Notes: generated by a model not told the origin, from the sequence alone. 64,000 nt of DNA from Candidatus Niyogibacteria bacterium (GCA_016432485.1 CP066691.1:281762-345761); one strand, 5' to 3'. Shown: positions 10,940 to 42,375, counted from the first letter of the stretch. Numbers and translations are program-made.

Positions 10940-11725
10940 ATGAGTTTCCGGATGAAGGTGGTGCTGTCTTTGGCCTTGACAATGTTCGGTCTCACTGCCG
11001 TAACCCCGGCCTTCGGGGACGTGCTCACCTGCGGCAAGGACGTGATCGTGAACAGCGATTCAACCTACGCGCGGTTTGCGGGTCTTGACCCTGACTGCTA
11101 CGGCAGGGGCGTGGAGCCAGCCGTGGTCGTCTCGAGTAAGGAACGGCGCGAGGCCGCCGAGGCGAGGATACGCATCTTGGAATCCGAGCTCAAGAAAGCG
11201 GTGGAGCCGGCCGTGGTCATCCCGGAGAGCAGCAGGAAACGGCACGAGGCCGCCGAGGCGAGGATACGCATCTTGGAATCCGAGTCCAAGAAGGCAATGG
11301 ATGAACTCAAAAAGCTGGCAGCCCTACGGGCAAAACCGGCAATCAAACCGCCGGTGGTGAAAACCACCCTGACAGCGAAAAAAGCAACTACCGTCGCCGG
11401 CAAAAAGAAGTCCGGCCCCCCCACGCCATCCTGGGTATGGATTATGATTGGCGTGGTGCTCATCGCGATCCTGGCGTCATTACTCGCCAAAGTCGCAGAG
11501 AACTTTCCAAGCCGGCTTATCATGAAAGGTGGGCGCCGAGCCGCCGCACCGGCCGGCCCAACCGCGCCGCCCAACCCAGAGGCGCCACCCGCCCCCGAAA
11601 ACGCAACCCCGCCTGACACTCCCGCGCCTGCCGAAGAGCAGTCCGTCGATGAAAAACCGCCGACGGAACCAGACGAACCCTCAACGCCGTCAACTACGTC
11701 GGGCGTCAGCACTTCCAGACGCTAA
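10940..11725 (+). CDS. secreted/membrane protein with a tandem roughly 31-aa repeat, a central TM helix and a Pro/Thr-rich tail; high-GC gene
   Basis: Signal peptide. Two tandem 90-96-nt repeats (11111-11200 and 11201-11296), each containing EAAEARIRILESE. TM helix WVWIMIGVVLIAILASLLA. PAPT-rich C-terminus. Local GC is visibly much higher than the flanks. Confidence 0.6.
   Translation: MSFRMKVVLSLALTMFGLTAVTPAFGDVLTCGKDVIVNSDSTYARFAGLDPDCYGRGVEPAVVVSSKERREAAEARIRILESELKKAVEPAVVIPESSRKRHEAAEARIRILESESKKAMDELKKLAALRAKPAIKPPVVKTTLTAKKATTVAGKKKSGPPTPSWVWIMIGVVLIAILASLLAKVAENFPSRLIMKGGRRAAAPAGPTAPPNPEAPPAPENATPPDTPAPAEEQSVDEKPPTEPDEPSTPSTTSGVSTSRR
11111..11296 (+). repeat. tandem direct repeat, 2 units of 90 and 96 nt, inside the CDS
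   Basis: gtggagcc[a/g]gccgtggtc...cgaggccgccgaggcgaggatacgcatcttggaatccgag repeated, with a 40-nt identical core. Confidence 0.85.
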
Positions 11726-26682: not shown

Positions 26683-27210
26683 TTACACAACTTCTTCTAT
26701 AAGAAACAATTTAATATATGGGATAACGCGGTAGGATCGTATAATTTCTTCAGTTTCTTTGTAAACATCGTAGGGGCACACCCACGCACTTTGCTGGAGT
26801 TTTTGATAACCCAGATTTATCAACGCCTCTCTCAATAATCCCCTCGTCCGCCTTTGCTTCTCCGGAATATCAAAAATGATCATTACCCATCTCCCGTCTT
26901 TTCGTCTTTTCTTTTGCTTTGATTTCCACCTTGCCAAAAGCACCCTTTTGGCGCCTTTGGGCGTAAGAATAATCCCCCTTGTGCCCTCAAGAGCTTTCAC
27001 CTTTATATATCCTCTTTCTCCTAAATTCTTAATAAACTGACTGAATTTGGTTCTGGCTTTCAATATTTGATACTCGCGTCTCAAGCGATGCTCTTCGGGG
27101 TAAACAACTTGATGCATCGTGTGCGGTGCTAAGACATCATATGCTTTATCCATTTTCTCAATAAATAGATAGAGTTTCCATAAAAACGCATCGGTAATTG
27201 GTAATTTCAC
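26683..27210 (-). CDS. winged-helix plus Cas2-like-fold (PaaX_C-like) putative transcriptional regulator
   Basis: C-terminal WVMIIFDIPEKQRRTRGLLREALINLGYQKLQQSAWVC matches the Cas2 core pattern (YDI..KRR.K...L..YG.R.Q.SVFEC). The N-terminal half is wHTH-like. Bracketed by 30-bp direct repeats. Confidence 0.5.
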   Translation of the reverse strand: MKLPITDAFLWKLYLFIEKMDKAYDVLAPHTMHQVVYPEEHRLRREYQILKARTKFSQFIKNLGERGYIKVKALEGTRGIILTPKGAKRVLLARWKSKQKKRRKDGRWVMIIFDIPEKQRRTRGLLREALINLGYQKLQQSAWVCPYDVYKETEEIIRSYRVIPYIKLFLIEEVV

Positions 27211-29387: not shown

Positions 29388-30089
29388 TTATTTTATTCTT
29401 ATTTTTTTCTCGTTTCGTCCGGCGTAATAATCGCACTTTTTGCACTCCAAATCGTCTCCCGGGTAAGGTTTTTCAAGAAAATCAACCATTTCTTTGAGTT
29501 TCTTTTCAAAATTTTTGGCGTCAATTTTCACTTCGTCCACATGACTCGCGAATTTCACTTCTGTTGACGGGTCGTTTTTGTCTTTGACGAAATAGTGCAG
29601 CAAAAAGGCGCGGTCTGACGGCTTATATCCGTTTTTCAAAAACATATAGCCATAGGCGGCAAGTTGGTCGCGGTAATATTTCTGCTTGTCTTCAGCCGGC
29701 GCGTTGCCGGATGATTTGTAATCGGCCGGAATAAAGCGGCCGTCCGATTCCACAAAAACATCGTCAATTTTTCCGACAAGTTCGTAACCCGAATTTTCAT
29801 TTACCACTTTAAGCGCGCTGGAATTGGTCCGCCACTCGTTGAGAAGTTCCAGATCGTCAAAAGTCCTTATGCCCATTTTCTCAAGCTCCTTGGATTCCGG
29901 CGGAAATTTTTTGTCGGCGCGGTATTTGTCGTATCTGGTCTTTAAAATGCTGTCCATCGCCGTATTTAAAGCCAACGGCAGCATCGGCGGTTTTCTATGA
30001 TGATTCTCAAGCCAAAAACAGGCCTTGCATTCCGTATAAGAATAAAGCCCGCTCGGGCTCAACTTCCATAATCCATTTTTTGTTTTCAT
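29388..30089 (-). CDS. PD-(D/E)xK nuclease, Cas4/RecB-like, with four Cys
   Basis: IDD...ADYK nuclease motif. N-terminal CKAC and C-terminal CKKC pairs, consistent with Cas4-type Fe-S ligation. Confidence 0.55.
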   Translation of the reverse strand: MKTKNGLWKLSPSGLYSYTECKACFWLENHHRKPPMLPLALNTAMDSILKTRYDKYRADKKFPPESKELEKMGIRTFDDLELLNEWRTNSSALKVVNENSGYELVGKIDDVFVESDGRFIPADYKSSGNAPAEDKQKYYRDQLAAYGYMFLKNGYKPSDRAFLLHYFVKDKNDPSTEVKFASHVDEVKIDAKNFEKKLKEMVDFLEKPYPGDDLECKKCDYYAGRNEKKIRIK

Positions 30090-30271
30090 GATTTTGGTTT
30101 TTTGTTCTTTTTTAAGTGTTTAAAAATCTCAATTTGACGAAGGCGCCTTTCGGCTTCTTTTTTTGTGTTATATCTTCCAAAAACTCTGCCTGTTTTTTCC
30201 GACGTCACCACATACTGTCCCTTGACTTTTTTAATCACGTACCTATAATAACACCGGACGTTGTTAAGCAT
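30086..30271 (-). CDS. small basic protein, hypothetical
   Basis: 61 aa, Lys/Arg-rich; overlaps the upstream nuclease gene by 4 nt. Confidence 0.35.
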   Translation of the reverse strand: MLNNVRCYYRYVIKKVKGQYVVTSEKTGRVFGRYNTKKEAERRLRQIEIFKHLKKNKKPKS

Positions 30272-30556
30272 AAGGGGGATGCCGTGAAAATTCTACGCGC
30301 TCTTCTTAAGGCGCTAAATCCTCTCATCTGGCTTATTAATCTGTTTATGTACTTTGCGCATCTTGAGGGTCAGAGATCTTGTAAAGAATATCATCCTTAT
30401 GATTTTTTCTGGGATCTAAAATATTTTTAAGGCCGAACCGCCCAACCCTCTTGGGCGGTTTCAATTGTTGCAAAGCATTTAATTATTCATATAATGTATA
30501 GAGAAGTTCCCTTTAAATTCATTCCGCAGTAGCTCAATGGTAGAGCAGCTCCCTGT

Positions 30557-31128
30557 GAATAAAATAGTTCGTTTTTTGTGGTATACTTAAATGTGTATGC
30601 CAAAAGAAAAACGAACATACGCCGACCGCCGAGAGTATTTAAAAATGGCAGTGACCAAAAGACGACGAAGATTAAAAACACTGCTTGTAGAATATAAAGG
30701 CGGGAAATGCACGGTCTGCAGTTATAATAAAACCCCGTGGGCAATGGATCTTCATCATGTTGATGAATCCAAGAAATCATTTGATATGTCCTCACGCGGA
30801 CTTACCCGCTCATGGGAACGTCTTAAAAAAGAGGCAGATAAGTGTGTGTTGCTTTGTGCAAATTGTCACAGAGAAATACACGCCGGCGTAACGCAGCTTC
30901 CTAAAGTAATTTAGGTTGAAAAATCTCGGGATAACGGTGAAGCCCTAAATCTTTTGCATTAGATTGGGTAATACCGTGGGAACCTTTGCTTGTTCGGGGT
31001 TTACTCCGAGCGAAGTCGAGGAGCGCCGTAGAGACTAGATACCGAGATCCCGCCATTCATTTGAAATATTATTTAATGGAGGGGGGGAAAGATATAGTCC
31101 AACCCTAAAAGTAATTTTAGGACCGTTG
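30557..31128 (+). mobile_element. group I intron (about 572 nt) with an embedded HNH homing-endonuclease ORF
   Basis: Lies between tRNA halves. Exon 1 ends in T and the intron ends in G (accgttG). P7-like pairing GAGACTAGA / GATATAGTCC, with the latter close to the Tetrahymena AGATATAGTCGG segment. P9-like hairpin CCTAAAAgtaaTTTTAGG just before the 3' splice site. Confidence 0.6.
30591..30914 (+). CDS. HNH homing endonuclease (intron-encoded)
   Basis: CTVCS...DLHHVD...CANCHREIH HNH/zinc-finger motif; 107 aa, basic. Confidence 0.75.
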   Translation: MCMPKEKRTYADRREYLKMAVTKRRRRLKTLLVEYKGGKCTVCSYNKTPWAMDLHHVDESKKSFDMSSRGLTRSWERLKKEADKCVLLCANCHREIHAGVTQLPKVI

Positions 31129-31234
31129 TAAGGAGTTGGTTGTAGGTTCGAATCCTACCTGCGGAGCCAATAAACTAGATACGAACTCATTTTTTGAAGA
31201 TTAGACCTCTATCAGAGGTCGTATCCAGCGCGGT

Positions 31235-31270
31235 TGACAATCGCTTGACAATTGAATATAGATTGCTTGG
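31235..31270 (+). promoter_or_regulatory. candidate promoter for the SNF2 operon
   Basis: Two TTGACA hexamers (GCGGTTGACAATCGCTTGACAATTGAATATAGAT); the first is 17 nt from TATAGA. Confidence 0.3.
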
Positions 31271-31292
31271 GTTTTGTGCCGCAAAACGCCCC

Positions 31293-31331
31293 GCCCCCGC
31301 CTCCGGCATATGCCGGAGGCGGGGGGTTTTA
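31293..31331 (+). terminator. intrinsic terminator downstream of the tRNA
   Basis: CCCCGCCTCCGGCATATGCCGGAGGCGGGGGG followed by TTTT. Confidence 0.7.
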
Positions 31332-31464
31332 GGTTGAAATCAGGCCAAAAATGTGGGAAAGTAAGGGGGATATGAAGAATCTCATGGAAAAATTGAAAAA
31401 GGTGCTTATCAAAGAGATGTTTACACATTCGGTGTTCCGCTTGATGATTTAATCAAGTAGAAAT

Positions 31465-34398
31465 ATGTCGGTTTTTCTTAAAAAATATTTGGCTGAAAAA
31501 GTAGCTCTTCAAAAAATGGCCGGCTCTTTGAACCGCCTATCTTCTGTCTTGGCAAAATCAACGATTGACCTCAACCCGTATCAAATTCATGCGGCTCTTT
31601 ACGCATTTAACAGTCCGCTTTCTCGTGGCGCAATTTTGGCCGATGAAGTCGGCTTGGGTAAGACGATTGAAGCCGGCATTATCATATCCCAACTTTGGGC
31701 CGAAGGGAAGAGAAAGATATTAATTCTTGCCCCGGCCTCGTTAAGAAAACAGTGGCAAGATGAGTTGCTTTCAAAATTTGGAATTGAATCAGAAGTTTGG
31801 GACGGCCCCTCTTTTAGGGCGCAAACAGACATGGGAGAAAAGACACCCCTAACTTACAGTGGCGTTTTTATAATTTCTTACCATTTTGCTTACAGCCACC
31901 TTGAATTGATAAGGAAGCAAGGTTGGGCTGTTGTTGTAATAGATGAAGCCCATCGTTTTAGGCGTGTGTTCAAGGGAAGAGATGCCTCAAAAATGGCATA
32001 CGACATTCGGGAAATAATAAAAGATAAACCAAAGGTTTTGCTGACGGCAACACCCCTGCAAAACAGCCTTGAGGAATTATACGGGATAGCAAGTTTTATA
32101 GACGACAAGCTTCTCGGATCATCCTATAGTTTCAAAACGAAGTTCATACAGCCGATAAAGGACCAGTCGGGGTTAGCTAAATTGAGATTGGAGGAATTGA
32201 GGGCATTGATACGCGGGGAAGAAGGCGACGACCCGTCGTCAATCTCCGGAGTAATTACACGGACTTTGAGAAAACAAGTTTTGGAGTATGTGCAATTTAC
32301 CGACAGGACATCAATGACTTTTGACTTTACTCCCACCGAGGAAGAAGTTGAATTGTACGAGAAAGTTTCCGCATACCTCCAGCGTCCTAATGTGGCGGCC
32401 ATTACCGCGACGCAGAGAAATTTGATGATTCTCGTTTACAGAAAATTATTGGCCAGTTCGTCGTTCGCCATAGCCGACACCCTGAAGAAGTTAAGTGAGA
32501 ATCTAAAAAACGAATTGAAGTTGCGAAATAAAGAAGCAGTGGCCGAGGAGTTGAATCCGGAGTCAACGGCAGATGAGGGCCTTTTGGAAGAATTTGAAGA
32601 ATCAGAATTGGAGGGAGTAGAACAAGGTCAGAAGAAAGAAAAGCAACGCGTTGACGATACTTTTAGCGATGACGACATAAAAAAGGAAATAGAGGAGTTG
32701 GAAGGATATTATTCATTGGCAGTCAAAATTAAAGAAAACACAAAGGGTAAAGCGTTGATTAACGCCTTGTCGCAACTTTTCAAACAGGCCAGAGAAAAGA
32801 AGTGGCCTGAAAAAGCTGTGGTGTTCACAGAGTCAACGCGCACTCAGGACTATCTTTTAAAACTTCTCAAAGAAGCCGGAATTTCTTTTACGGAATTCAA
32901 CGGGTCAAATAACTCGCCCGAAGCACGAGAGGCATTCAATCGTTGGAAAAAGGAGTTTCCAGAAGCGGCATCTGTTGGTTCAGCATCTGCCAACACGCGC
33001 CAAGCTCTTATTCATGACTTCAGAACAAATACACAAGTCTTGCTTACCACAGAAGCGGGGGCGGAAGGATTAAACCTCCAGTTTGCAAATATTGTCATCA
33101 ATTATGATTTGCCGTGGAATCCTCAAAGAGTGGAACAGAGAATCGGCCGTTGCCACCGCTACGGCCAAAAGCACCAAGTGGTAGTTGCGAATTTTCTTAA
33201 TACAAAAAATTACGCCGATAAGCGAGTACTGGAATTGTTGAGCGAGAAACTAAATTTATTTAACGGACTTTTTGGAAGTTCCGATGAGATTCTTGGCGCT
33301 TTGGAATCCGGTCTTGATTTTGAAAAGAAGATACTTGAAATTTATCAAAACAGCAGAAGCCCTGAAGAATACGACAAAGCGTTTACAGAACTACAGGAAA
33401 GCTTGAAAGATGTTATCTCAAAAACAACCTTGCAATATAGAAACTTGTTATTGGAAAGCGCGGATCAAGCTGTTGCCGCATTATTCAAAAAAACGGAAGC
33501 GGAAACTAAAAAAGCGATTTCAGATTTTGACAGGGATTTGCTTTTTCTCTGCAAGCTCACGCTGGAAGAAAAGATAAAACCAACCGAGGATGAGGCGATT
33601 TTTGTGATAGATGGTTATAAATTTCCGATTGCTTTTCGAGAGCTTCGCGATGATGAAGAAGGTAAAATTTCCCGCGCGCACAAAGACCATCCAGTCATCA
33701 GTAAAATTATTGAAGATAATTTGAAACTGCAAACTAAGCCGATACCTTCTTTGATTTTTGAGCTTTCAAAACACGGCGGTAAAATATCCCAGTTGAGCGA
33801 CGCTAAAGTAAAAGAAGGATTTATATTTCTTTGGAAGTTAAAGATAGCCGGAGTCGAGACGGAAGAAATTTTAGTGCCGCTCGTTTTTCTCGAAAAAACA
33901 GAAGGCGAATTCAGCGCATTGGATGTGGCAATTGCCAATGAATTCATTGATGTGGAAAGTGTTGATTCTGAAAAAACACTTGAGAGTTCGCCTATTAAAA
34001 AAGAGTTTTTGCTTCAAACTTGGGAAAAATGGAAAAAGCCAGTTGTAGAAAGGTATCAGAAAAGAAATGAGCGTCTTTTTGACAGGGAGACGAACAGGAT
34101 AAACCGATATTACGACGACTACGCGCTTCGTGTTGAAGATAGGATGAAAAAGTCGGAAAATGAACAAAAGGATGTAAATCGTAGGAGAGATAATTCCTCC
34201 GACTTGGAAGAAAGGCGGAAGTTGCTCAAGCGAATTCAAGACATCAATATTGCTTTGGACAAGCTAAGAATCCAGCAGTTGAAGTTGAGACAAGAAGGTG
34301 CGAAATTGCGAGAAAAAGAACTGGACAATCTTTGGAAAACTCTGGAGCCGAAAATTTCCGAAGAAATGATTGCGATAACGCATTTCACCATTCAATAA
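31465..34398 (+). CDS. SNF2-family DNA-dependent ATPase/translocase with a roughly 350-aa C-terminal domain of unknown function
   Basis: Motif I DEVGLGKT, Ia PASLRKQWQDE, II DEAH, III TATPLQNSLEELY, helicase-C motifs (TEAGAEGLNLQ, QRIGRCHRYGQ). Acidic insert between lobes; coiled-coil C-terminus. Confidence 0.85.
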   Translation: MSVFLKKYLAEKVALQKMAGSLNRLSSVLAKSTIDLNPYQIHAALYAFNSPLSRGAILADEVGLGKTIEAGIIISQLWAEGKRKILILAPASLRKQWQDELLSKFGIESEVWDGPSFRAQTDMGEKTPLTYSGVFIISYHFAYSHLELIRKQGWAVVVIDEAHRFRRVFKGRDASKMAYDIREIIKDKPKVLLTATPLQNSLEELYGIASFIDDKLLGSSYSFKTKFIQPIKDQSGLAKLRLEELRALIRGEEGDDPSSISGVITRTLRKQVLEYVQFTDRTSMTFDFTPTEEEVELYEKVSAYLQRPNVAAITATQRNLMILVYRKLLASSSFAIADTLKKLSENLKNELKLRNKEAVAEELNPESTADEGLLEEFEESELEGVEQGQKKEKQRVDDTFSDDDIKKEIEELEGYYSLAVKIKENTKGKALINALSQLFKQAREKKWPEKAVVFTESTRTQDYLLKLLKEAGISFTEFNGSNNSPEAREAFNRWKKEFPEAASVGSASANTRQALIHDFRTNTQVLLTTEAGAEGLNLQFANIVINYDLPWNPQRVEQRIGRCHRYGQKHQVVVANFLNTKNYADKRVLELLSEKLNLFNGLFGSSDEILGALESGLDFEKKILEIYQNSRSPEEYDKAFTELQESLKDVISKTTLQYRNLLLESADQAVAALFKKTEAETKKAISDFDRDLLFLCKLTLEEKIKPTEDEAIFVIDGYKFPIAFRELRDDEEGKISRAHKDHPVISKIIEDNLKLQTKPIPSLIFELSKHGGKISQLSDAKVKEGFIFLWKLKIAGVETEEILVPLVFLEKTEGEFSALDVAIANEFIDVESVDSEKTLESSPIKKEFLLQTWEKWKKPVVERYQKRNERLFDRETNRINRYYDDYALRVEDRMKKSENEQKDVNRRRDNSSDLEERRKLLKRIQDINIALDKLRIQQLKLRQEGAKLREKELDNLWKTLEPKISEEMIAITHFTIQ

Positions 34399-34399
34399 T

Positions 34400-35374
34400 A
34401 TGTCAACGGAAATTAAACAAAAAAAACAGGACTTGGGAATTTTTTACACCGACCAGAGAATCGTGAGTTTTATATATGATATTCTTTCTGTCTGGAAAGC
34501 AAAAGAGGACGAGGATTTAAAGCGTTGGGAGAGTCGAAAACCTCATGCTCACTATCCGTCAGTTATTGATCCGGCTTGCGGCGAGGGAATCTTCTTAAAG
34601 AAAGCAGTGGAGTCCGGTTTTACCGGATACAATCCTACACATAAAGTGCCATATATTTTCGGTATTGATATAGATGAATCGGTTGTTGATAAATGGGAAT
34701 CTGTTGAGCTTCTAAATTTTTTCCACGAAGACAGAAGGGCAATGAAAAATCACTTTTATGGCCAAAACGGATTGCTTAATCTGCCGAATAGAAAATTGCC
34801 TTACAAAAAAATGGAAGACGGACTTGTACAATTTGATGCGGTTGTTGGTAATCCGCCGTATGGAGGCATCGGTCTTAAAGAAGAAGAAATGAGGGGCAAA
34901 TTGGCGGCATCCCTTTTGGAGTACGAGATATGGAAATACGCTTTTGATATACAAATAAGCAAGCAGGGAAATATGTTTGGATCCATGGCCTCTCAAAAGG
35001 ACATTGTAAATAGATTGAGAAATATGCCCATCGAAATTTTATTTCTAGAGAGATTTATACAACTTGCAAAGCCGGGCGGTTGGATAGCTATCATTATTCC
35101 AGACGGCATTTTAACCAATTCAAATTCTCACTATGTACGCGAATTTGTTAGCGAGAAAGCAAGAGTGGAAGCAATTGTTTCTTTGCCGCGAGACGCTTTC
35201 AAAAATGTTGGCACAACAGCCAAAACCAGCATTTTATTTTTACAAAAATATAAAGACCAAGGGAAAGAGCGAGATTTAAACTATCCGGTTTTTCTCGCTT
35301 CAGTCGAATCTCTTGAAGAAAAATATTTTAAAATTATAAAAGATGCTTACCAAAAGCATTATACAAAAATATGA
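34400..35374 (+). CDS. gamma-class N6-adenine DNA methyltransferase (HsdM/Eco57I-like catalytic module without TRD)
   Basis: Motif I DPACGEGIFL and motif IV VVGNPPYGG; the start is 2 nt after the SNF2 stop. Confidence 0.8.
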   Translation: MSTEIKQKKQDLGIFYTDQRIVSFIYDILSVWKAKEDEDLKRWESRKPHAHYPSVIDPACGEGIFLKKAVESGFTGYNPTHKVPYIFGIDIDESVVDKWESVELLNFFHEDRRAMKNHFYGQNGLLNLPNRKLPYKKMEDGLVQFDAVVGNPPYGGIGLKEEEMRGKLAASLLEYEIWKYAFDIQISKQGNMFGSMASQKDIVNRLRNMPIEILFLERFIQLAKPGGWIAIIIPDGILTNSNSHYVREFVSEKARVEAIVSLPRDAFKNVGTTAKTSILFLQKYKDQGKERDLNYPVFLASVESLEEKYFKIIKDAYQKHYTKI

Positions 35375-36198
35375 GCAAGAAAAATTTAGTTCAAATAACA
35401 ACAGATGAAAAAGGTCGGGAAATCGTAATGGTACGAGTGGATAAAACCCTGAAAGAAATGATGGAAGAAAAACCATCAAGTAGATGGAATGCTGCTTACT
35501 GGCATCCAACCTATGTTAAAAATTCAGAAGAAATAGCAGCAAGTAATTTTTCTGTAATTAAAATAGGCGACGCGGAAGAAAGATTGACTTATGGCGCAAT
35601 CGTTACTGGCGGGAAAAATTATGAGGGGAAGGGAGTATTTTTAGTCAATCAGGGAGATATCCAATTTACCGGATTAGATAATACGAATTTGAAAGAAGTT
35701 AAAAAAGCTTCTCCTTGGAATATTGAACGCGCAAAGGTTAAACTTAATTCTTTGATTTTAGCTCGATCTGGAGTTGGAGGAGTTGGTAAAAATCGAATTA
35801 CTATTATAACCAAGCCAATGAATGCGGTGGTAGATAGTTTTGTTGATGTTTTAGACCTAGACGATAAAAAAATTAATCCTGTTTATGTACTTGTCTTTTG
35901 GAAAACTATGTTTGGGAAATTACAAATTGAAAGAATAATAAATGGCGTTGGAACTGTAAATATTAGTTTTGATGAAATTAGAGAAATGAAAATACTTGAT
36001 ATTTCGGAAGGTGTTCAAGGCAATATTGAATCCGAATATAAAAAAATATCTGTCTTTCACGACAAGGCAATGGAAGCAAAGAAAAAGGGCAAGGATGTGG
36101 AATACAAAGCTAACATGGAAACCGCCGAGAGAATGCTGAAAGATTTAATCGCTAAAACCGAAGCCGTTATTCGCGGCGAGAAAAAAGATGTAATTTAA
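35371..36198 (+). CDS. HsdS-like DNA specificity protein with a single target-recognition domain
   Basis: TRD-like pattern (LTYGAIVTGG..., LILARSGVGGVGKNRITI, INGVGTVNISFDEIREMKILDISE) plus a helical conserved region. Overlaps the MTase stop by 4 nt. Confidence 0.7.
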   Translation: MSKKNLVQITTDEKGREIVMVRVDKTLKEMMEEKPSSRWNAAYWHPTYVKNSEEIAASNFSVIKIGDAEERLTYGAIVTGGKNYEGKGVFLVNQGDIQFTGLDNTNLKEVKKASPWNIERAKVKLNSLILARSGVGGVGKNRITIITKPMNAVVDSFVDVLDLDDKKINPVYVLVFWKTMFGKLQIERIINGVGTVNISFDEIREMKILDISEGVQGNIESEYKKISVFHDKAMEAKKKGKDVEYKANMETAERMLKDLIAKTEAVIRGEKKDVI

Positions 36199-36203
36199 TT
36201 TTT

Positions 36204-37997
36204 ATGCCAGAACAAAGGTCGGAAAATTCTTATATCGTAAACGACATCTTACCGTTTCTGGCAAGCAATTTTGGCTACCCGATTCATGACGCGGAGCGAG
36301 TAAAAATAAACGATGTTCCGATTTTTCGGCCAAGCGGCGGCAGAAGTGGGTCCACAATTGATATTGTCTACTATCATAACGGGGAGCCAGTTCTTCTCAT
36401 TGAAGCAAAAACTAAACATAAAACTCATGAGTCCGCATTGATAGAAGCAAAGAATTATCTAAAAAACTTTCCCATAGACAAACCGGAGTTTGCTCCGTCT
36501 GGCTTGCCCCCAAAAATTTTGGCAACAACAGTCGGTAAAAACATTAAATTTTACAAATGGAGCATAGATTATTCAAAACCAATTCCGGATTTTATAACCG
36601 AAGAAATTGAGGTTTTATCATTTGAGAAGTTGCTTTCCTACTACGGATTAATTAAAGAATATAAGGCGCGCATTTTAGAGCCCAAAAACTTTGCCACGGA
36701 TTTTTTTGACGAACTAATTTCTATTTTCAAATTTCATAAAAAAGAGAAAAAAATAACAAAGGATGTTGTCAAAGAAGTTGTTTATCAAATTCACAATTAT
36801 TTGCTGAATCCAAAAAAATACACCGGCGATTATCCTTACACCGAATTGGACTTACAAGGACAAAAAGCCGTTCGCGATCTGTTTAAGCGATTTGATTTTG
36901 TCGCTTCGCTTGGCCCGGAAATAGCCAAAGAATTTCGCAAGTCGATTTTGAGATCTTTTCAAGGCGAAGAATTCAATCAGTACCTTACCGAAAAATGCGT
37001 TATAGATTTTGTTTTCGGTCTGATTGGCAAATTGAACAAACACACGAAAGTTTTGGATTTCGAGTGTGGTAGTGGAGGATTTTTGGCGACGGCAGTCAAT
37101 CAGAACAATTTGGATTTGGAAAATGTGATGGGGATTGATATTGAGGACTTGCCTTATATCATCGCCAAAACTTACTTTGCTCTGTACTTCGGAAAAACCG
37201 GTGAGGGGTTGAATCTTGTCCCAATAAAGAAAGATAACGGCTTGTTTTATCACGGCAAGAATTGGGATTTAGTTGTGGGCAATCCCGCCGGAAGCAGTAA
37301 ATACGAACATGGCGATGAAGATAAAATTTTTGAGAATCTAAATAGTGATTTAAATAACGACGACAAAAAAGATAAAATTTCGGAGTACAATTTGTCAATT
37401 CAGCAAGCGATTCAATCCGCTCGCGTTGGCGGCAAGATTTGTTTGATACTGCCTGAAGGAGTGTTTTCAAATTCTCAAGACGAGTTTTTAAGAAAATATA
37501 TCGCCAAATATTGCAATATATTGGCAATCGTGAGCTTGCCACCGGGGTCGTTCAGAAGAGGAACAACAGTAAGCCAGTTAAGGAGAGGCGCACAATCTGC
37601 TTCAATGAAAATGTCTATTGTGTACGCGGAAAAAACCAGAGAGGTCAGGAAAAAAGAAGGATTGGAAGTTGATTTGAGGCATTTGGACTACCCGATATTT
37701 TTAGCGCACATTGATAAGGTTGATTCCGGATCAGGCGAAATCAGTGAATGGCTGGAGGAAAGATTAAACGTTGTGTTGGAGCAATGGAAAGAGTGGCAGA
37801 ATAAAGCTGAATTGAATGATATTGAAAAAATAACCACAAAGCTTGATAAAGAAGAAAAGATAAAAGAAAATCAAAAAACTTTGTTTAGCAAGGTCGAGCT
37901 CGACAAGACAAACATAGAAAAAAGTAAAAAGATAAAACCAAAAGAGGGTAAGTCAGAAACAAAGATAAGCAAAAACTTGGAAGATTTATTAAGTTAA
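36204..37997 (+). CDS. HsdR_N-type PD-(D/E)xK nuclease fused to a paralogous N6-MTase-like domain with a degenerate motif IV (NPAG) and a Lys-rich coiled-coil tail
   Basis: N-terminus GSTIDIVYYHNGEPVLLIEAKTK (D...ExK). MTase-like domain has motif I LDFECGSGGFLATAV but VVGNPAGSS in place of NPPY. Collinear similarity to the 34400-35374 protein (MGIDIE vs FGIDID, GGKICLILPEGV vs GGWIAIIIPDGI, AIVSLPP vs AIVSLPR). Confidence 0.7.
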   Translation: MPEQRSENSYIVNDILPFLASNFGYPIHDAERVKINDVPIFRPSGGRSGSTIDIVYYHNGEPVLLIEAKTKHKTHESALIEAKNYLKNFPIDKPEFAPSGLPPKILATTVGKNIKFYKWSIDYSKPIPDFITEEIEVLSFEKLLSYYGLIKEYKARILEPKNFATDFFDELISIFKFHKKEKKITKDVVKEVVYQIHNYLLNPKKYTGDYPYTELDLQGQKAVRDLFKRFDFVASLGPEIAKEFRKSILRSFQGEEFNQYLTEKCVIDFVFGLIGKLNKHTKVLDFECGSGGFLATAVNQNNLDLENVMGIDIEDLPYIIAKTYFALYFGKTGEGLNLVPIKKDNGLFYHGKNWDLVVGNPAGSSKYEHGDEDKIFENLNSDLNNDDKKDKISEYNLSIQQAIQSARVGGKICLILPEGVFSNSQDEFLRKYIAKYCNILAIVSLPPGSFRRGTTVSQLRRGAQSASMKMSIVYAEKTREVRKKEGLEVDLRHLDYPIFLAHIDKVDSGSGEISEWLEERLNVVLEQWKEWQNKAELNDIEKITTKLDKEEKIKENQKTLFSKVELDKTNIEKSKKIKPKEGKSETKISKNLEDLLS

Positions 37998-38001
37998 AAA
38001 T

Positions 38002-38283
38002 ATGAAAAAAGATAATAAAACAATAGGTATTACAATTCGTTTTTTCACCAACGATCTGCCGGGTCGTGTAGGAACCAAAAAGGAACACACACCATTTTGG
38101 ACTTGTGGCAACGTTCATCTCGAGGCGAACAAAACAAAAGGAATAAAACCTCAAGATGAAATGTTCAATTACTTTGAAGATATTCCCCGCGCAATTAAGG
38201 TGGTTTTAAGCAAAAGTAAATTGGTAGCCGTTGAAGATGTTGCGTATAGCATGAGAGCAGAGAAAAGAAGAAAAACAAGTTGA
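38002..38283 (+). CDS. small hypothetical protein, last gene of the operon
   Basis: 93 aa; begins 4 nt after the upstream stop. Confidence 0.4.
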   Translation: MKKDNKTIGITIRFFTNDLPGRVGTKKEHTPFWTCGNVHLEANKTKGIKPQDEMFNYFEDIPRAIKVVLSKSKLVAVEDVAYSMRAEKRRKTS

Positions 38284-38568
38284 TCAGCTCGTCTATGGTT
38301 CGATAAACTCACCACAGGTAAACTCTACACCCTCACCCCGGAGGAAATTAAGGTTGTGGAAAATTGATTTGCATTTTCAAAAATTTATGTCCTAACTTTA
38401 AAACCAAGTTGATTTTTTAAATAAAATATGCTAGACTTAAACTAAAGTAGATAAAAAATTGAGAGATTAATAAATCGGGGGTTCGCTAAACATTTTTTGT
38501 GACGCAACCTCATTCATCCCTCCGATTCACGGAAAGATGCTCGTCCGAAAACGGCGGCATCTCAAGAA

Positions 38569-38597
38569 AAACGGACGGGATAGGTCCGTTTTTTTGT
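38569..38597 (+). terminator. intrinsic terminator
   Basis: AACGGAC-gggatag-GTCCGTT followed by TTTTTTG. Confidence 0.65.
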
Positions 38598-38634
38598 TTG
38601 CTGAGTCGAAAAACAGTAATTATTAATTCATTGC

Positions 38635-38919
38635 TTGTCAAAATATATGATAACTTTAGAGCTTGTTTTCGCAGTTATAACAACCGTCCTTACTCTAGCC
38701 AATATTTTTCAGTGGTTTGATCACAGATCAAAAAATAAAGCACTGCAAAGCTTTCTGGAAGCTATTCACGACATCTCTAAAAGGTTAGAGGGGGTAAGTG
38801 ATGGACCAACAATTAAACAAAAATCTCAAGATATTTGTTCGGTAGTAAACGCCGCAATAGTAACGGTTGGTGGATATAAAAAGCCGTTTTTTAACCGCAT
38901 TAAAAAGGGTGGGGCTTAA
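38635..38919 (+). CDS. hypothetical membrane-anchored protein
   Basis: N-terminal TM; followed by terminator AAACGGCTAAATC-ggtg-GATTTAGCCGTTT at about 38996-39032. Confidence 0.4.
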   Translation: MSKYMITLELVFAVITTVLTLANIFQWFDHRSKNKALQSFLEAIHDISKRLEGVSDGPTIKQKSQDICSVVNAAIVTVGGYKKPFFNRIKKGGA

Positions 38920-39101
38920 AAATCCTGAAAACCACATGAGTCTTGATCTGCTTAGATAAGCGGAGATGGCGCTTTGCTAATTCAGGGACCCGACACCAAA
39001 CGGCTAAATCGGTGATTTAGCCGTTTGGTTTGCCCTTGATTTTTCCCAAAATTTTTTGTAGGCTTGGAATATCTTTATGGATATCTTTATCTTCTTAAAA
39101 A

Positions 39102-39785
39102 GTGAAAAAAGATCAAAAAATATATATAAAAGAGAACGATGTTAACTTTCGGAAGCCATCCGGTGAACCAGATGGCGTGGAAAAAATGAAAGCGGGACAG
39201 AATCTCGTTTTTGTGGATGGGCCGTGGTTTAGGGCAACAAAAGATGGAAAGATTGGTTGGGTCTATGCTGACTATATATCTGAAACGAATCCGAACCCCG
39301 CACAGCAGCCACAGCAATTGATTTCTTTTGTGGAGGGATGGCCAAACTTATACAACAGCCCTGTTACTGTTGCCGTTCGCGAAATTATTAATAATGAGTT
39401 TGGGCTTGAAGCGGAGAAAATCCCGTTAAATTGTACCGAATACGTCCAGTATTGCATCAAGACAAAACTGGGCATTGTTATCGAGTGGCCATCTGACCGC
39501 CCGCGTCATGGCGGAAAATGGGCAGATATTTTTAGACGAAATAATTTGTACAAGGTTATAAATGAACCAGTTTCAAATTGTGCTGCTTGTTTTACTGATG
39601 TCCGCAAGAAAGACGGAACTTTAACAAAGGAAGGTCACGTTGCATTTGTTGAAGAAATATTTCCTGATGGCTCAATAAAAATTTCAGAGGCAAATTGGCC
39701 CAACAGCGGTATTTATAGTGAGCGTATTTTAAGCAAAGCGGATTGGCAAAATAAATATAGGTGCCGTTTTATTGATTTTTTATGA
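39102..39785 (+). CDS. SH3b plus CHAP-domain peptidoglycan hydrolase (no signal peptide)
   Basis: SH3b-like GQNLVFVDGPWFRATKDGKIGWVYADYI. CHAP Cys (CTEYVQYC) and His (GHVAFVEEI). Confidence 0.65.
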   Translation: MKKDQKIYIKENDVNFRKPSGEPDGVEKMKAGQNLVFVDGPWFRATKDGKIGWVYADYISETNPNPAQQPQQLISFVEGWPNLYNSPVTVAVREIINNEFGLEAEKIPLNCTEYVQYCIKTKLGIVIEWPSDRPRHGGKWADIFRRNNLYKVINEPVSNCAACFTDVRKKDGTLTKEGHVAFVEEIFPDGSIKISEANWPNSGIYSERILSKADWQNKYRCRFIDFL

Positions 39786-40279
39786 CAATACCGGGTCAAC
39801 AAAAAGTACGAAAAATTATTCGTGGGGACGAACAAAATAGGATTACTATTGCGGTGGTATTTTTGGCCACCTATCTAACTATTATTTTTGGGCTGTCTGA
39901 TAAAATCAGGGTATCTATAAATGATATAAACGGGATGAGCATCTTGAATGACTTGGTTTTTGCAATTTTTATAGTTTTCGGCGTCTTAATTTCATCTCTG
40001 TTTTTCTTATATCTAGTTTTCACGGCACTAAGTTTAGATTTTAATAAACAAAAAGAGGTTATTTTTGAGCAAGAGGTGAGTGAGAAAAAATTAGTTAAAG
40101 TAAGAGAAAAACTTTTTAATGCTGGAGTGCGATCTGTTTTCATTTCATTTACGTTCCCGGTTTATTATCTCTTCGTTTTGTTTAGGAAAGGTTACGGAGT
40201 ATGGACCTCCGTATTGCTGTGGGGCTTCAGTCTAGCCTTAATATATATTTTGTTATTTTTAGTTTTTAAAGACGATTAA
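39782..40279 (+). CDS. four-TM membrane protein, hypothetical
   Basis: Overlaps the CHAP gene by 4 nt. Confidence 0.45.
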   Translation: MTIPGQQKVRKIIRGDEQNRITIAVVFLATYLTIIFGLSDKIRVSINDINGMSILNDLVFAIFIVFGVLISSLFFLYLVFTALSLDFNKQKEVIFEQEVSEKKLVKVREKLFNAGVRSVFISFTFPVYYLFVLFRKGYGVWTSVLLWGFSLALIYILLFLVFKDD

Positions 40280-40311
40280 CTGGCCAACAAAAAAATTAGG
40301 AAAATAAATTT

Positions 40312-41136
40312 ATGAACGAATTTGAATATATTAAACAGCATCTGCTCAATAGATTAGAAATTGATCGCGGATACTCTCATGGTGGGGCCCAGCGTATTTT
40401 AAGAGAACAACTAAATGAATGGGAAAAAAGAAAAAATGGCATTAAAGATTTATATGGCTTGTATAGACAATTTCTTATAAGCGCGCAAAATCGGCAGGGC
40501 ATGCCTAACATTATAGGGGGAGAAAAAGGGGTTGATGAAATTTTAGAAAAAGTCATTAAGACACGACGACTTGATAAAATTGTGGAAAACTTTAAATCAC
40601 CGGAAATTCTCTTTGAGAAAATTAAAAAGGTGAGTATAACAAAAAAACATACACTGAAAAGCTCTAAAAATACATGGATTGGTTTTTGTAAATCTGTTAT
40701 ATCCAGCGCGGAGTTTTTAAAGCAGTTTAAAGATTTAAACGATTTTAGAAAGTTTGCGGATTCTTTGTATAAAGTGAGGGGAGCGCGTATGGCTCTGCCT
40801 CTTATCATAAGTGCGGAAGTTAGCGGGATTGGGTTGGCATTGGCTTGTGATATTTTAAAAGAAAGCGGATACCCAGATTATGTTAAACCCGATATTTGGA
40901 TTAAGCGCTTTGCAAAAGCTTTTGAAATTACAAAGTCAAACAGCGACTACAGAATAGCGGAGGATCTCGTGGCTTATAGTAAATCTATTAACGAACTGCC
41001 GTATGTGGTTGATAAGGCGTTCTGGTTAACTGGTAGCGGAGATTTTTATCTTAGTGGAGATAAAATCGAAAGAGTTAAAAAAGAAGATATAGAAAGTTTT
41101 GTTGAAAAATATAAAAAAGAGAAATTAACCCCATGA
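40312..41136 (+). CDS. hypothetical protein with an HhH-GPD-like motif (possible DNA glycosylase fold)
   Basis: LPLIISAEVSGIGLALACDIL followed by VKPDIWIKRF resembles the EndoIII LPGVG...VDTHIFRV arrangement. Confidence 0.35.
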   Translation: MNEFEYIKQHLLNRLEIDRGYSHGGAQRILREQLNEWEKRKNGIKDLYGLYRQFLISAQNRQGMPNIIGGEKGVDEILEKVIKTRRLDKIVENFKSPEILFEKIKKVSITKKHTLKSSKNTWIGFCKSVISSAEFLKQFKDLNDFRKFADSLYKVRGARMALPLIISAEVSGIGLALACDILKESGYPDYVKPDIWIKRFAKAFEITKSNSDYRIAEDLVAYSKSINELPYVVDKAFWLTGSGDFYLSGDKIERVKKEDIESFVEKYKKEKLTP

Positions 41137-41474
41137 CCTCAATTTTAATTTCCATAATTATTTTTCTTGCCGTGGCAGTTTTGGTGCTGGCTGTTTTTGC
41201 GCGTAAAGAAGCGGAAAAACACGGCACGAATACGAAAGATGAATTTGTCGGTATCTGCGCCTCGGCAATTGAGACGGCTTCGGAAAAAGAATCTCGCAAG
41301 CAAAAGGCGCTGGCTATGTTTGAGCGGAAAAAAGAACTCTCCAACGCCGAAATCCGCAAGACGCTCGGCGTATCTAGCCGCACGGCCGTGCGCTATTTAG
41401 ATGAATTGGAAGCGGAGGGCAAAATAGAGCAAGTCGGCAAAATCGGCCACGCCGTCACCTACCGTCTAAAATAA
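41133..41474 (+). CDS. membrane-anchored winged-HTH DNA-binding protein
   Basis: N-terminal TM plus C-terminal LSNAEIRKTLGVSSRTAVRYLDELEAEGKI HTH. Confidence 0.55.
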   Translation: MTSILISIIIFLAVAVLVLAVFARKEAEKHGTNTKDEFVGICASAIETASEKESRKQKALAMFERKKELSNAEIRKTLGVSSRTAVRYLDELEAEGKIEQVGKIGHAVTYRLK

Positions 41475-41475
41475 A

Positions 41476-41513
41476 ACAACATTCCAACATTCTGCAGAAT
41501 GTTGGAATGTTGT
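41476..41513. promoter_or_regulatory. perfect 38-bp palindrome, ArsR operator candidate, copy 1
   Basis: aacaacattccaacattctgcagaatgttggaatgttgtt, checked base by base. Located immediately upstream of the arsR-like gene. Confidence 0.6.
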
Positions 41514-41536
41514 GGCGGATGTGTTATGTTGTAAAT

Positions 41537-41806
41537 ATGGTAAAGACTTCAAGACAACTGGAAAGATATTTTAAGGGCGCGGCCAACCATCGGCGAATTG
41601 ATATCTTGTTTACGGTTGAAAAAAATGACGGGATTACGGTTGAAGAGATTGCGGATGCTCTGGAGGCAAATTTCAAGACCATCTCCCAGCACACACGCTC
41701 GCTGGTCCATGCCGGTCTGTTGAATAAACAATACCGCGGCCGTCGGGTAGCGCACTCACTTTCTCCCTATGGCAAATTTTTCCTTAAGTTCATGAAAACA
41801 TTCTAA
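41537..41806 (+). CDS. ArsR/SmtB-family transcriptional regulator
   Basis: HRRIDILFTV...ITVEEIADALEANFKTISQHTRSLVHAGLL ArsR HTH. The track start at 41507 overlaps the palindrome, so the likely true start is the ATG at 41537 (MVKTSRQL). Confidence 0.7.
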   Translation: MVKTSRQLERYFKGAANHRRIDILFTVEKNDGITVEEIADALEANFKTISQHTRSLVHAGLLNKQYRGRRVAHSLSPYGKFFLKFMKTF

Positions 41807-41830
41807 CATTCTGCAGAATGTTAGAATGTT
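41797..41830. promoter_or_regulatory. perfect 34-bp palindrome, ArsR operator candidate, copy 2, upstream of tspO
   Basis: aaacattctaacattctgcagaatgttagaatgttt; shares its core with copy 1. Confidence 0.6.
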
Positions 41831-41865
41831 ATGAATGCGCCAGACGAGTGGCGTATTGAAAAAAA

Positions 41866-42375
41866 ATGAAAATCGGTAATATTTTAAAACTCACTATTGC
41901 GATTGCGGTGTCGGAATTGGCCGGTGTGATCGGCTCGTTTTTTACTGTTTCTTCAATTCCAAATTGGTATGCCGGGCTGGTGAAGCCGGCGCTCAATCCT
42001 CCTGCTTGGGTATTTGGACCCGCGTGGACTATGCTTTACGCGTTGATGGGCATTTCGCTTTTTTTGATCTGGAAGATCAACCCTTCCGAAGCTCGCGTCG
42101 GCGAGCGTAGGAGGGCCGTCACATTATTTTTCATCCAGCTTTTCTTAAACGCAATCTGGTCAATTATTTTCTTTGGCCTGCATGGTTCAACATGGCTCAC
42201 CATAAACAATCTCGGCTGGGCATTGGTTGATATCATTCTTCTCTGGCTCGCGATCGTCTGGACAATGGTTGTATTCTACAAAATTTCTCGCCCGGCGGCA
42301 TATCTCCTCGTGCCGTATCTTCTCTGGGTAAGTTTCGCGATGTATTTAAACTACGCGATCTGGGCATTAAATTGA
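41866..42375 (+). CDS. tspO: TspO/MBR tryptophan-rich sensory protein
   Basis: Five TM helices; conserved NPPAWVFGPAWTMLY and W-rich segments. Confidence 0.85.
   Translation: MKIGNILKLTIAIAVSELAGVIGSFFTVSSIPNWYAGLVKPALNPPAWVFGPAWTMLYALMGISLFLIWKINPSEARVGERRRAVTLFFIQLFLNAIWSIIFFGLHGSTWLTINNLGWALVDIILLWLAIVWTMVVFYKISRPAAYLLVPYLLWVSFAMYLNYAIWALN

Follow-up and report, generated by a model that had tools for sequence, protein, structure and literature searches.

Patescibacteria, the candidate phyla radiation (CPR), mostly lack CRISPR-Cas and are presumed to rely on defences of the restriction-modification (R-M) type, and their systems are largely uncharacterised. Among the systems described in bacteria, BR is defined by a DUF499 ATPase and a DUF1156 methyltransferase (MTase), and ARMADA by ArmC and ArmD (PMC12839542, PMC13463889). 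Group I introns at position 35/36 of tRNA-Asn(GUU), missed by ARAGORN and self-splicing in vitro, have been reported from Patescibacteria (Nakagawa et al., mSystems 2026; PMC13011429), and 4 of the 15 tRNA-Asn introns in complete genomes of the phylum are longer than 500 nt and carry an HNH endonuclease (PMC13011429). Here we analysed a 64,000-nt stretch of the chromosome of Candidatus Niyogibacteria bacterium (GCA_016432485.1 CP066691.1:281762-345761; hereafter the window), a tiny-genome member of the Patescibacteria, in which a block of accessory genes follows an intron-bearing tRNA-Asn gene.

We consider it probable that the segment from 31.4 to 41.1 kb (41.5 kb with a terminal helix-turn-helix (HTH) gene), which begins after the tRNA-Asn terminator, is a horizontally acquired mosaic of defence-type modules. 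At least three modules can be told apart, and they appear to have arrived separately. The first (31465-38283) would be an ATP-dependent R-M-like system made from split parts, whose gene arrangement is observed directly and whose mechanism is proposed below. The second (39102-40279) would couple a cytoplasmic SH3b-CHAP peptidase to a protein with several transmembrane (TM) segments, and the third (40312-41474) would join a probably monofunctional HhH-GPD glycosylase to a membrane-bound HTH regulator. The modules recur elsewhere in differing neighbourhoods, often beside genes for serine recombinases, transposases, AbiEii, Mrr or PIN proteins. The original prediction for this DNA had described an accessory, mosaic and horizontally acquired block after the tRNA, and composition, codon usage, the identity of the R-M-like cassette between genomes and the recurrence of the modules all bore this out. 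The genes it listed (Cas4-like nuclease, small basic protein, intron-bearing tRNA, R-M operon, CHAP peptidase, multi-TM protein, HhH-GPD protein and TM-anchored HTH protein) were all found where it had placed them.

Composition and boundaries of the block

The GC content dropped from about 0.44 to 0.36-0.39 at 33-41 kb, compared to 0.42-0.51 elsewhere in the window. For core genes, the GC content at third codon positions (GC3) averaged 0.476 (sd 0.039, n=47), while the nine genes between 31465 and 41136 had values, in order, of 0.429, 0.351, 0.275, 0.401, 0.319, 0.308, 0.364, 0.331 and 0.305 (z -1.2 to -5.1). In segments spanning 30-41 kb, the tetranucleotide L1 distance rose to z = 6 and the correlation of GC-normalised tetranucleotide usage fell to z = -6.5; segments lying wholly in the first of the nine genes, encoding an SNF2 ATPase, also deviated in tetranucleotides (z about -3.5), though this gene was included in the reference set. 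Codon usage was compared by chi-square distance, a per-codon log-likelihood having been dropped as uninformative because it rewards over-use of the commonest codons. The pooled chi2/df of the block was 7.76, whereas 300 sets of core genes matched to it in size averaged 1.88 and did not exceed 3.66.

The block had been predicted to extend over 29.4-41.5 kb. GC content, codon usage and tetranucleotides did deviate strongly, but for about 31.4-41.1 kb: the foreign block stood within these narrower limits, and the Cas4-like gene with its DUF2188-like partner on the left and the TM-HTH gene on the right are native by composition (Cas4-like gene, GC3 0.513, z +0.9; TM-HTH gene, z +1.3; both core-like). 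The left edge falls between the tRNA terminator (31294-31325) and 31464, where homology with the cassette of another genome starts, and on the right the composition switches at 41133.

Probable transfer of the R-M-like cassette between lineages

The R-M-like operon of the original prediction proved to be a cassette of five genes, the first four recognised by their domain matches: a SNF2 ATPase, an N6-adenine DNA MTase (M), a half-size specificity subunit (S), a PD-ExK nuclease fused to an MTase-like domain (Nuc-M) and a small basic protein (o93). The same five genes were present on L085, a contig from another CPR lineage that is labelled Magasanikbacteria. In blastn alignments the window was 83% identical to L085 over 31464-34623, 90% over 35027-35515 and 80% over 36031-38363, with gaps only in the middle of the MTase gene and in the target recognition domain (TRD), compared to 65-68% DNA identity for two core genes of both, TspO and BipA. 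Protein identities to L085 were 88% for SNF2, 83% for Nuc-M, 91% for o93, 56% for M and 46% for S, the most diverged gene of the cassette, and 51% for BipA. At about 70% identity, SNF2 homologues were found under the labels Elusimicrobia and Actinobacteria. The cassettes of other genomes adjoined serine recombinases, a transposase, AbiEii, Mrr or a ParB-MTase, and their M and S were either split or fused (608-681 aa). Judged by these comparisons, the cassette is a predicted mobile defence module exchanged between distant lineages.

No close SNF2 relatives were detected on viral contigs, and none of the Cas4-like protein; because query-specific peptides were used, these scans exclude close relatives only. 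Nuc-M was found on no PLSDB plasmid. We also observed copies with an identical SNF2 protein (L088, 12573-14533, versus L089, 11717-13675) in which M and S were split on one contig and fused into a 652-aa protein on the others, in DNA that was 98% identical with 8 gap positions. The difference could be a frameshift polymorphism, possible phase variation, or an assembly error.

Cassette proteins and a proposed mechanism

The SNF2 protein matched, in its helicase core, the PADLOC DrmD profile PDLC02619 (2e-184) and scored 614 bits with NF038318, below the cutoff of 950; its C-terminus was BrxH-like, and its best PDB matches were the Sulfolobus Snf2/Rad54 core and RapA. M was collinear with the N-terminal half of the fused M.S proteins and reached 26 bits with TIGR00497 (hsdM), far below the cutoff of 243, while S resembled the second half of Type I S subunits. 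For Nuc-M, an exhaustive search of 1.84 billion representatives yielded about 14 full-length clusters. D53, E67-A68-K69, DFECGSGGF and NPAG were invariant in 6 copies down to 47% identity; in the wider family motif IV was NP[A/S]G, with NPPG in the most distant relatives, and it was never aromatic. The best PDB match of Nuc-M was the Type IIB enzyme RM.BsaXI. From these motifs, the MTase domain is predicted to bind S-adenosylmethionine (SAM) but to be catalytically dead, and the nuclease is predicted to be live. The fifth protein, o93, matched no family; copies 87-88% identical to it directly precede a Cas4-like gene in L101 and L121.

In the mechanism that we propose, M, with its NPPY motif, and the half-size S would methylate the target sites of the host, and the pseudo-methyltransferase of Nuc-M would dock the nuclease onto the same S-defined recognition complex, taking a place comparable to that of the RM subunit in Type IIB enzymes or of the second M in a Type I M2S1 assembly. 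Where the DNA is unmodified, translocation would be driven by the DrmD/RapA-like SNF2 protein, in the role played by the HsdR helicase in Type I systems and by the motor in Type ISP enzymes, and would license cleavage. On L117, the gene after that of a member of this SNF2 subfamily (5e-161) encodes a single-chain Type IIG restriction endonuclease (RE)-MTase (774 bits), a pairing that would, by analogy, support this model.

Contig L117 is of note in itself. Between 3596 and 10699 it encodes, in overlapping frames, the DrmD-like SNF2 protein (1039 aa), the Type IIG RE-MTase with a Type_ISP_C domain (1093 aa) and a Cas4-like protein, a sister architecture of the split cassette.

The tRNA-Asn gene and its group I intron

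ARAGORN called no tRNA in the window. The intron-bearing tRNA that had been predicted was nevertheless recovered through a match to the Rfam group I intron family RF00028 at 30815-31121 (57.3 bits, E 6e-12; gathering score 50), flanked by two halves that splice to a 75-nt tRNA-Asn(GUU). Running ARAGORN on 450 in silico splice variants was not decisive alone; a 7-nt anticodon loop, together with a U as the last base of the 5' exon and a G as that of the intron, left a single solution, U30556/G30557...G31128/U31129, which gives C-U-G-U/U-A-A. The spliced product has U1-A72 and G73, and E. coli tRNA-Asn likewise has both. On L095, which has the closest Cas4-like relative (85% identical), ARAGORN called a tRNA-Asn(gtt) that lacks the intron, shares the relative placement and orientation of the window tRNA and matches the spliced product at 86% identity over 70 nt; the intron is therefore optional. 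The open reading frame (ORF) inside the intron matched HNH endonuclease families of phages in PHROG (1.5e-29 and 4e-27), and CxxC...CxxCH is found in its translation. Since it had no Pfam match at E <= 0.01, PF01844 included, its HNH assignment rests on the PHROG and PADLOC profiles.

The window intron shares with the published class (PMC13011429) the phylum, the tRNA, the 35/36 site, the U/...G/ boundary rule, the failure of ARAGORN, the detection by RF00028, a length above 500 nt and the HNH gene. We found no material difference, and splicing of the window intron is predicted. Because the class has been described, this part of the locus is already known and is another member of it.

Proposed integration at the tRNA

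Genomic islands integrate most commonly at tRNA genes, and the block could be a classical tRNA-targeted island, or a degraded integrative element or prophage remnant, that recombined site-specifically into the tRNA-Asn 3' end and whose integrase and distal att repeat were lost later. The foreign composition does begin within about 300 nt of the tRNA 3' end, and large serine recombinases are encoded close to the cassette in other genomes. However, Pfam, PADLOC and NCBIfam scans of the genes from the Cas4-like nuclease to the glycosylase revealed no recombinase, nor did Pfam alone in the TM-HTH gene and about 30 flanking ORFs, in agreement with the original prediction for this part of the window's ORFs, and no window ORF clustered with the serine recombinases of L088 and L093. 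The last 25 nt of the tRNA occurred as a single copy in the window at up to 3 mismatches, and a repeat finder returned nothing relevant, so that the att-like repeat looked for was not there; local alignments of the tRNA 3' region with candidate right boundaries at 38.3-39.1, 40.2-40.3 and 41.05-41.9 kb were no better than shuffles. Further, a strong terminator and a spacer devoid of promoters lie between the tRNA and the point where the foreign DNA begins, and the homology with L085 starts exactly at the SNF2 start codon. The modules are separate elsewhere, and no examined copy of the cassette adjoins a tRNA. Phage structural or replication genes were also absent, and the island ORFs submitted to PHROG, a set that excluded the four large cassette genes, had no match except for the generic HTH of the TM-HTH protein. 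The claim that the block had integrated at a tRNA was thus not upheld, and we regard such an origin as unlikely. Adjacency to a tRNA and foreign composition do not suffice to establish integrase-mediated insertion.

The original prediction had further pointed to a switch, at the tRNA, from minus-strand housekeeping genes to plus-strand accessory genes. This switch is real, but it does not mark an island: the plus-strand run continues beyond 41.5 kb with genes of core composition such as BipA, and the switch therefore belongs to the chromosome. A replication origin at this point, considered from the cumulative GC-skew minimum at about 30 kb, was rejected because the skew follows the coding strand (about -0.15 in minus-strand and about +0.03 in plus-strand core genes), which would imply a constant offset without a change of sign.

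Gene order was not conserved even for the housekeeping neighbours, as seen when 80 loci surrounding MgsA in genomes and 30 surrounding the Cas4-like gene in metagenomes were compared, so synteny cannot separate an island from general shuffling. L001, the closest genome, with an MgsA 90% identical to that of the window, retains only YggU-x-MgsA. Between YggU and MgsA, where Ham1 lies in the window, this genome (8635-9915) carries genes for a nucleoside deoxyribosyltransferase and a Fic/DOC protein; gene turnover therefore extends even to the "housekeeping" flank.

The SH3b-CHAP peptidase and its membrane partner

The CHAP peptidase (PF05257, 3e-11) was leaderless, as predicted, with no hydrophobic N-terminus and neither a signal peptide nor a TM segment. 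Its catalytic Cys111 and His179 were invariant. The SH3_3 domain (PF08239) was recognised in full-length homologues 62-63% identical to the protein, and in the window copy only at E = 0.0065. The membrane protein predicted to follow it was confirmed with 4-5 hydrophobic segments and matched no family.

CHAP and SH3b domains are typical of endolysins and peptidoglycan hydrolases. The two genes might thus be a prophage endolysin/holin remnant, or a secreted effector/immunity pair acting against the bacterial host of this episymbiont, in either case unrelated to defence. The 4-nt overlap between the CHAP gene and a small multi-TM gene fits such a pair, as does one homologue (L132, 50% identical), which adjoins murG and lies near an M23 peptidase. 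Against this, the family had no relative in 2.9 million viral contigs (alignment-based scan), on PLSDB plasmids or in PHROG, no phage gene is adjacent, and the protein has no features for export. Moreover, three of the four homologues whose contexts were sampled lie between hsdM and hsdS in overlapping frames, the murG neighbour being the fourth. These three are 52-60% identical to the query and 51-66% to each other, and they fall into three separate clades of a neighbour-joining tree; the window CHAP is sister to one of these R-M-embedded clades, and its multi-TM partner is missing from their operons. We therefore disfavour the endolysin/holin-like reading that had been offered and hold any such pair, phage-derived or secreted, to be quite improbable. 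Since the usual home of the family is inside Type I R-M operons, a phage endolysin is a less likely identity for the CHAP protein than a passenger or effector linked to defence, and a housekeeping role in the cell wall is possible. In the literature searched, no function was reported for a CHAP peptidase in R-M-linked defence.

The hsdM-CHAP-hsdS operons were located at 4472-11768 of L128, 5254-8915 of L129 and 577-8121 of L130 (context L130/131), the last contig ending at a large serine recombinase. In these operons hsdS is followed by a gene for a 249-282-aa protein, whose copy in L128 matches the PADLOC candidate PDC-S05, and then by hsdR where the contig reaches that far (L128 and L130).

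The HhH-GPD glycosylase and the membrane HTH protein

The 274-aa protein predicted to be HhH-GPD-like (o274) had no Pfam match and returned nothing in a PDB sequence search. An AlphaFold2 (AF2) model from the single sequence was unusable (predicted local distance difference test (pLDDT) score 43) and was repeated with an alignment. The new model and Foldseek confirmed the fold: the top 44 PDB matches were all HhH-GPD glycosylases, led by Ogg2 (3n0u/3knt, E 3e-4) and followed by EndoIII, AlkA, Mag and MutY, with target TM-scores of 0.35-0.67 in the six best matches and lower beyond. One homologue, P0156, matched PF22175 (Ogg-HhH) at 24.9 bits, below the cutoff of 27. An invariant block, G172...D180...K192-P193-D194, places D194 at the position of the catalytic Asp, and no Lys aligns with the lyase lysine of EndoIII, which suggests a monofunctional glycosylase. 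Homologues of o274 are scattered over Bathyarchaeia, Gammaproteobacteria and CPR, and three distant relatives lie on viral contigs; upstream of one homologue, 85% identical, is a PIN-domain gene.

The neighbouring protein is membrane-anchored as predicted, with a TM segment at residues 1-28 and a winged HTH. The pair is found again in L126 at 82% DNA identity and with the same contrast in GC3 (0.32 versus 0.57). In addition, a sequence of about 30-50 nt matching 40265-40315, just upstream of the glycosylase gene, was found on both sides of that gene in L125 (839-868 and 1892-1921), and may be a partial duplication or a cassette-like repeat.

The Cas4-like nuclease

On the other side of the tRNA, the predicted Cas4/RecB-like PD-(D/E)xK nuclease was borne out by its PDDEXK_1 match and exactly four Cys, arranged as one CxxC near the N-terminus and another near the C-terminus, together with D...DYK and QxxxY motifs and a match to phrog_31195 (1e-25). 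The small basic protein beside it was found as well, and was absent from the neighbourhoods of the relatives of the nuclease. A CRISPR Cas4 identity was rejected: TIGR00372 scored 25.9 bits, below the cutoff of 65, the window has no repeat array, and the neighbours of 30 relatives are not cas genes.

These 30 relatives (63-85% identical) lie in unrelated neighbourhoods. The same-strand gene directly upstream encoded HsdR (L112), SNF2 with Type IIG (L117), HsdS after an M.S fusion (L102), an MTase with a TdeIII restriction endonuclease (L109), an AIPR abortive infection (Abi) protein (L098) or Nuc-M/o93 (L121 and L101); other upstream neighbours were an SPFH protein or unknown. Members of the family thus recur as the 3'-terminal gene of R-M/Abi operons, and the protein of the window is probably an accessory nuclease of such systems. 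Its nearness to the cassette is probably not accidental, though it lies on the opposite strand, across the tRNA, and is compositionally native.

Two kilobases from the Cas4-like gene, at 26683-27210 on the minus strand, we also noted a 175-aa protein with a PaaX-type Cas2-like central domain (PF20803, 1e-19; CRISPR_Cas2, 6e-5), whose linkage to CRISPR was likewise rejected for want of a repeat array.

Weighing the proposed acquired mosaic

Several observations weigh against an acquired mosaic of defence modules, or limit it. The GC3 of the SNF2 gene (0.429, z -1.2) is in the core range; its tetranucleotides and codon chi2 alone deviate. On the right, the limit of the block is ambiguous because the TM-HTH gene is core-like yet linked to the glycosylase gene elsewhere. 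The cassette, TspO and BipA stand in the same strand order on L085 (4971-11948, 13529-14005 and 14807-16618) and in the window (31465-38283, 41866-42375 and 50708-52498), which could reflect a shared ancestral locus instead of independent insertion; a shared insertion hot spot or coincidence may also account for it. L095 is the nearest relative in which the Cas4-like gene and tRNA-Asn are arranged alike, but its contig stops 40 nt beyond the tRNA and affords no presence/absence comparison there. In Logan assemblies, three contigs start at 31324 and one ends at 41447, and these ends were considered as boundaries of a population-variable island. They were rejected as such, since they abut perfect palindromes or repeats (31294-31325, 38995-39029 and 41478-41514); palindromes break k-mer assembly graphs, and the ends are assembly breaks. 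The murG-adjacent CHAP homologue fits a housekeeping role in the cell wall. Finally, we infer from domain content and gene neighbourhood the R-M mechanism and the assembly of its subunits, and likewise the defence roles of the CHAP, glycosylase and Cas4-like proteins.

That the block is native and vertically inherited, with its low GC and odd codon usage due to amino-acid composition or expression level, is very hard to credit: the GC3 of SNF2, the placing of TspO and BipA downstream of the cassette in both genomes, which hints at a shared locus, and the o274/HTH contrast, which by recurring in another genome means that GC steps are not always insertion scars, would all fit, but the two genomes share 83-91% identity in cassette proteins against 51% in BipA, metagenome-assembled genomes (MAGs) under the labels Elusimicrobia and Actinobacteria contain homologues at about 70% identity, GC3, a measure that does not depend on amino-acid content, lies below core, mostly by 3-5 sd, in eight consecutive genes, and GC-normalised tetranucleotide usage deviates too.

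With horizontal acquisition as the preferred account, the cassette can be viewed as a compact, cross-phylum mobile R-M variant in which functions of Type I, IIB and ISP enzymes are spread over a Snf2 motor, a live MTase and a nuclease carrier with a putatively dead MTase. A CHAP family that resides in Type I R-M operons hints at a biochemically new kind of effector coupled to R-M, and the Cas4-like nuclease, trailing many different R-M and Abi systems, is a lead to follow. A bolder proposal, which we put forward tentatively and think more likely wrong than right, is that the SNF2/M/S/Nuc-M/o93 cassette is an undescribed ATP-dependent R-M class and that the leaderless CHAP and four-Cys Cas4-like proteins are unrecognised R-M-coupled accessory effectors, in CPR and other uncultured bacteria. 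If so, a motor of the Snf2 remodeller type would replace HsdR, and the nuclease would be delivered on a conserved, catalytically dead, SAM-binding MTase scaffold.

Features of the locus and its flanks

The features from the Cas4-like gene to the TM-HTH gene are collected in Table 1.

Table 1. Coordinates of the features between 29.4 and 41.5 kb, counted from the first nucleotide of the window.
Feature	Position	Strand	Remarks
Cas4-like PD-(D/E)xK nuclease, 233 aa	29388..30089	-	PF12705 PDDEXK_1 4e-15; PADLOC Cas4 9e-10
Small basic protein, 61 aa, pI 10.5, weak DUF2188 similarity	30086..30271	-	4-nt overlap with start of Cas4-like gene
Promoter-like site TTGCAA-16-TATAAT	30468..30495	+	28 nt upstream of tRNA; consensus match only
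tRNA-Asn(GUU) exon 1	30523..30556	+	Acceptor and D arms, 5' anticodon stem, C32 U33 G34 U35
Group I intron, 572 nt, tRNA position 35/36	30557..31128	+	Rfam RF00028
HNH homing-endonuclease-like ORF in intron, 107 aa	30591..30914	+	PHROG HNH families, PADLOC endonuclease matches
tRNA-Asn(GUU) exon 2	31129..31169	+	U36 A37 A38, 3' anticodon stem, variable loop, T arm, acceptor, G73, encoded CCA
Hairpin terminator, 14-bp stem, 13 G-C pairs, T-run	31294..31325	+	Ends tRNA unit; Logan assemblies break here
DrmD/RapA-like SNF2 ATPase, 977 aa, presumed double-stranded DNA translocase	31465..34398	+	PF00176 7e-34, Helicase_C 9e-24
N6-adenine DNA MTase (M), 324 aa, NPPY intact, no TRD	34400..35374	+	PF02384 2e-19, Eco57I 5e-13
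Half-size S subunit, one TRD	35371..36198	+	ATGA overlap with M; PADLOC Specificity_I 1e-12; GC3 0.275
PD-ExK nuclease (HSDR_N) fused to MTase-like domain (Nuc-M), 597 aa	36204..37997	+	PF04313 7e-6, PF02384 4e-14
Conserved basic protein o93, 93 aa, fifth cassette gene	38002..38283	+	91% identical in L085; present in L088
Terminator-like hairpin after cassette	38573..38591	+	L085 cassette homology stops at 38363
90-aa protein, one N-terminal TM helix, low GC3	38647..38919	+	Gene call in L081
SH3b-CHAP cysteine peptidase, 227 aa, GTG start	39102..39785	+	PF05257; start confirmed by homologue N-termini
Membrane protein, 165 aa, translationally coupled to CHAP	39782..40279	+	4-nt overlap with CHAP; 4-5 hydrophobic segments
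HhH-GPD superfamily DNA-glycosylase-like protein (o274), 274 aa	40312..41136	+	AF2 pLDDT 93.2, 35-sequence alignment
TM-anchored winged-HTH protein, 113 aa	41133..41474	+	HTH_11 8e-8, DIP2311-like_C; TM at 1-28

The best relatives of the flanking MgsA/RarA gene come from MAGs of Patescibacteria/Parcubacteria. The left flank carries minus-strand genes for TGT, a short-chain dehydrogenase/reductase (SDR), a P-type ATPase, DsbD-like proteins, MgsA, Ham1 and YggU. The right flank, on the plus strand and of normal composition, carries ArsR, TspO, peptidases, a ZIP transporter and BipA.

The 90-aa protein at 38647-38919 matched no family. Between its gene and the CHAP gene lies a perfect inverted repeat at 38995-39029 (ccaaacggctaaatc...gatttagccgtttgg), probably a terminator, and the Logan contig L082 stops just beyond it. 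A 37-nt near-perfect palindrome, AACATTC(C/T)AACATTCTGCAGAATGTT(G/A)GAATGTT, occurs twice (41478-41514 and 41797-41833, 92% identical) and flanks the ArsR-family gene (probable start 41537), with the second copy directly upstream of TspO. By their sequence and placing, the two copies look like operator sites for autoregulation and for control of TspO; they also break k-mer assemblies. Far to the left, at 10940-11725 on the plus strand, an ORF with a GC content of 0.62 and a GC3 of 0.72 encodes an Ala/Pro-rich, repetitive surface protein with a signal peptide and a TM segment. It has no Pfam or Rfam match, and its high GC content is an effect of amino-acid composition.

Comparison with known systems

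Set against Type I, Type IIB, Type ISP, DISARM, ARMADA and BR/Hma systems, the cassette lacks features by which each of them is defined, and no name for its architecture was found in the open-access literature. Like Type I R-M, it combines in one operon a separate gamma-class N6-adenine MTase, a separate S with a Type I-like TRD, an HSDR_N PD-ExK nuclease and an ATPase of the SF2 superfamily. Unlike Type I, it has its nuclease and motor on different polypeptides, with a motor that is Snf2/RapA/DrmD-like and not HsdR-like, the nuclease is fused to a second, seemingly dead MTase-like domain, and S has one TRD instead of two. The nuclease-then-MTase order of Nuc-M, with a separate S beside it, is that of BcgI-A and RM.BsaXI in the Type IIB systems BcgI and BsaXI. 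Type IIB systems, however, have no ATPase and methylate through their RM subunit, whereas the cassette begins with a SNF2 ATPase and motif IV of Nuc-M is the non-aromatic NPAG. Among the single-chain Type ISP and IIG enzymes (LlaGI, MmeI-like), it shares with Type ISP an identical set of modules (nuclease, motor, MTase and TRD); there, these form one polypeptide with an HsdR-like motor, while in the cassette methylation would be left to the separate M. A sister arrangement, in which SNF2 is paired with a single-chain Type IIG enzyme, is that of L117.

The likeness to DISARM class 1, ARMADA and BR lies in the SNF2 protein, whose best profile is DrmD, and in its N6-adenine MTase partner, as in DrmD/DrmMI, ArmA/ArmB and the BR helicase/MTase. 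However, neither the helicase DrmA with DrmB (DUF1998) nor the phospholipase D (PLD)-type DrmC of DISARM class 1 was found in the operon or this region of the window, and the cassette has no ArmC (DUF1998 helicase-nuclease) or UvrD-like ArmD of ARMADA and no DUF499 ATPase or DUF1156 MTase of BR/Hma.

Type I R-M loci can carry passenger genes, as in the EcoprrI locus, where the PrrC anticodon nuclease is encoded inside the hsd operon. The position of the CHAP family between hsdM and hsdS, beside a PDC-S05-like gene, resembles that of PrrC, although the window CHAP, unlike such passengers, is encoded beyond the R-M cassette and has a membrane protein as its partner. As a whole, the block is probably a small defence island or gene-flux hot spot in the sense of Makarova, and not a classical integrase-borne tRNA island; like other defence islands, it groups several defence-type modules in a compositionally foreign stretch.

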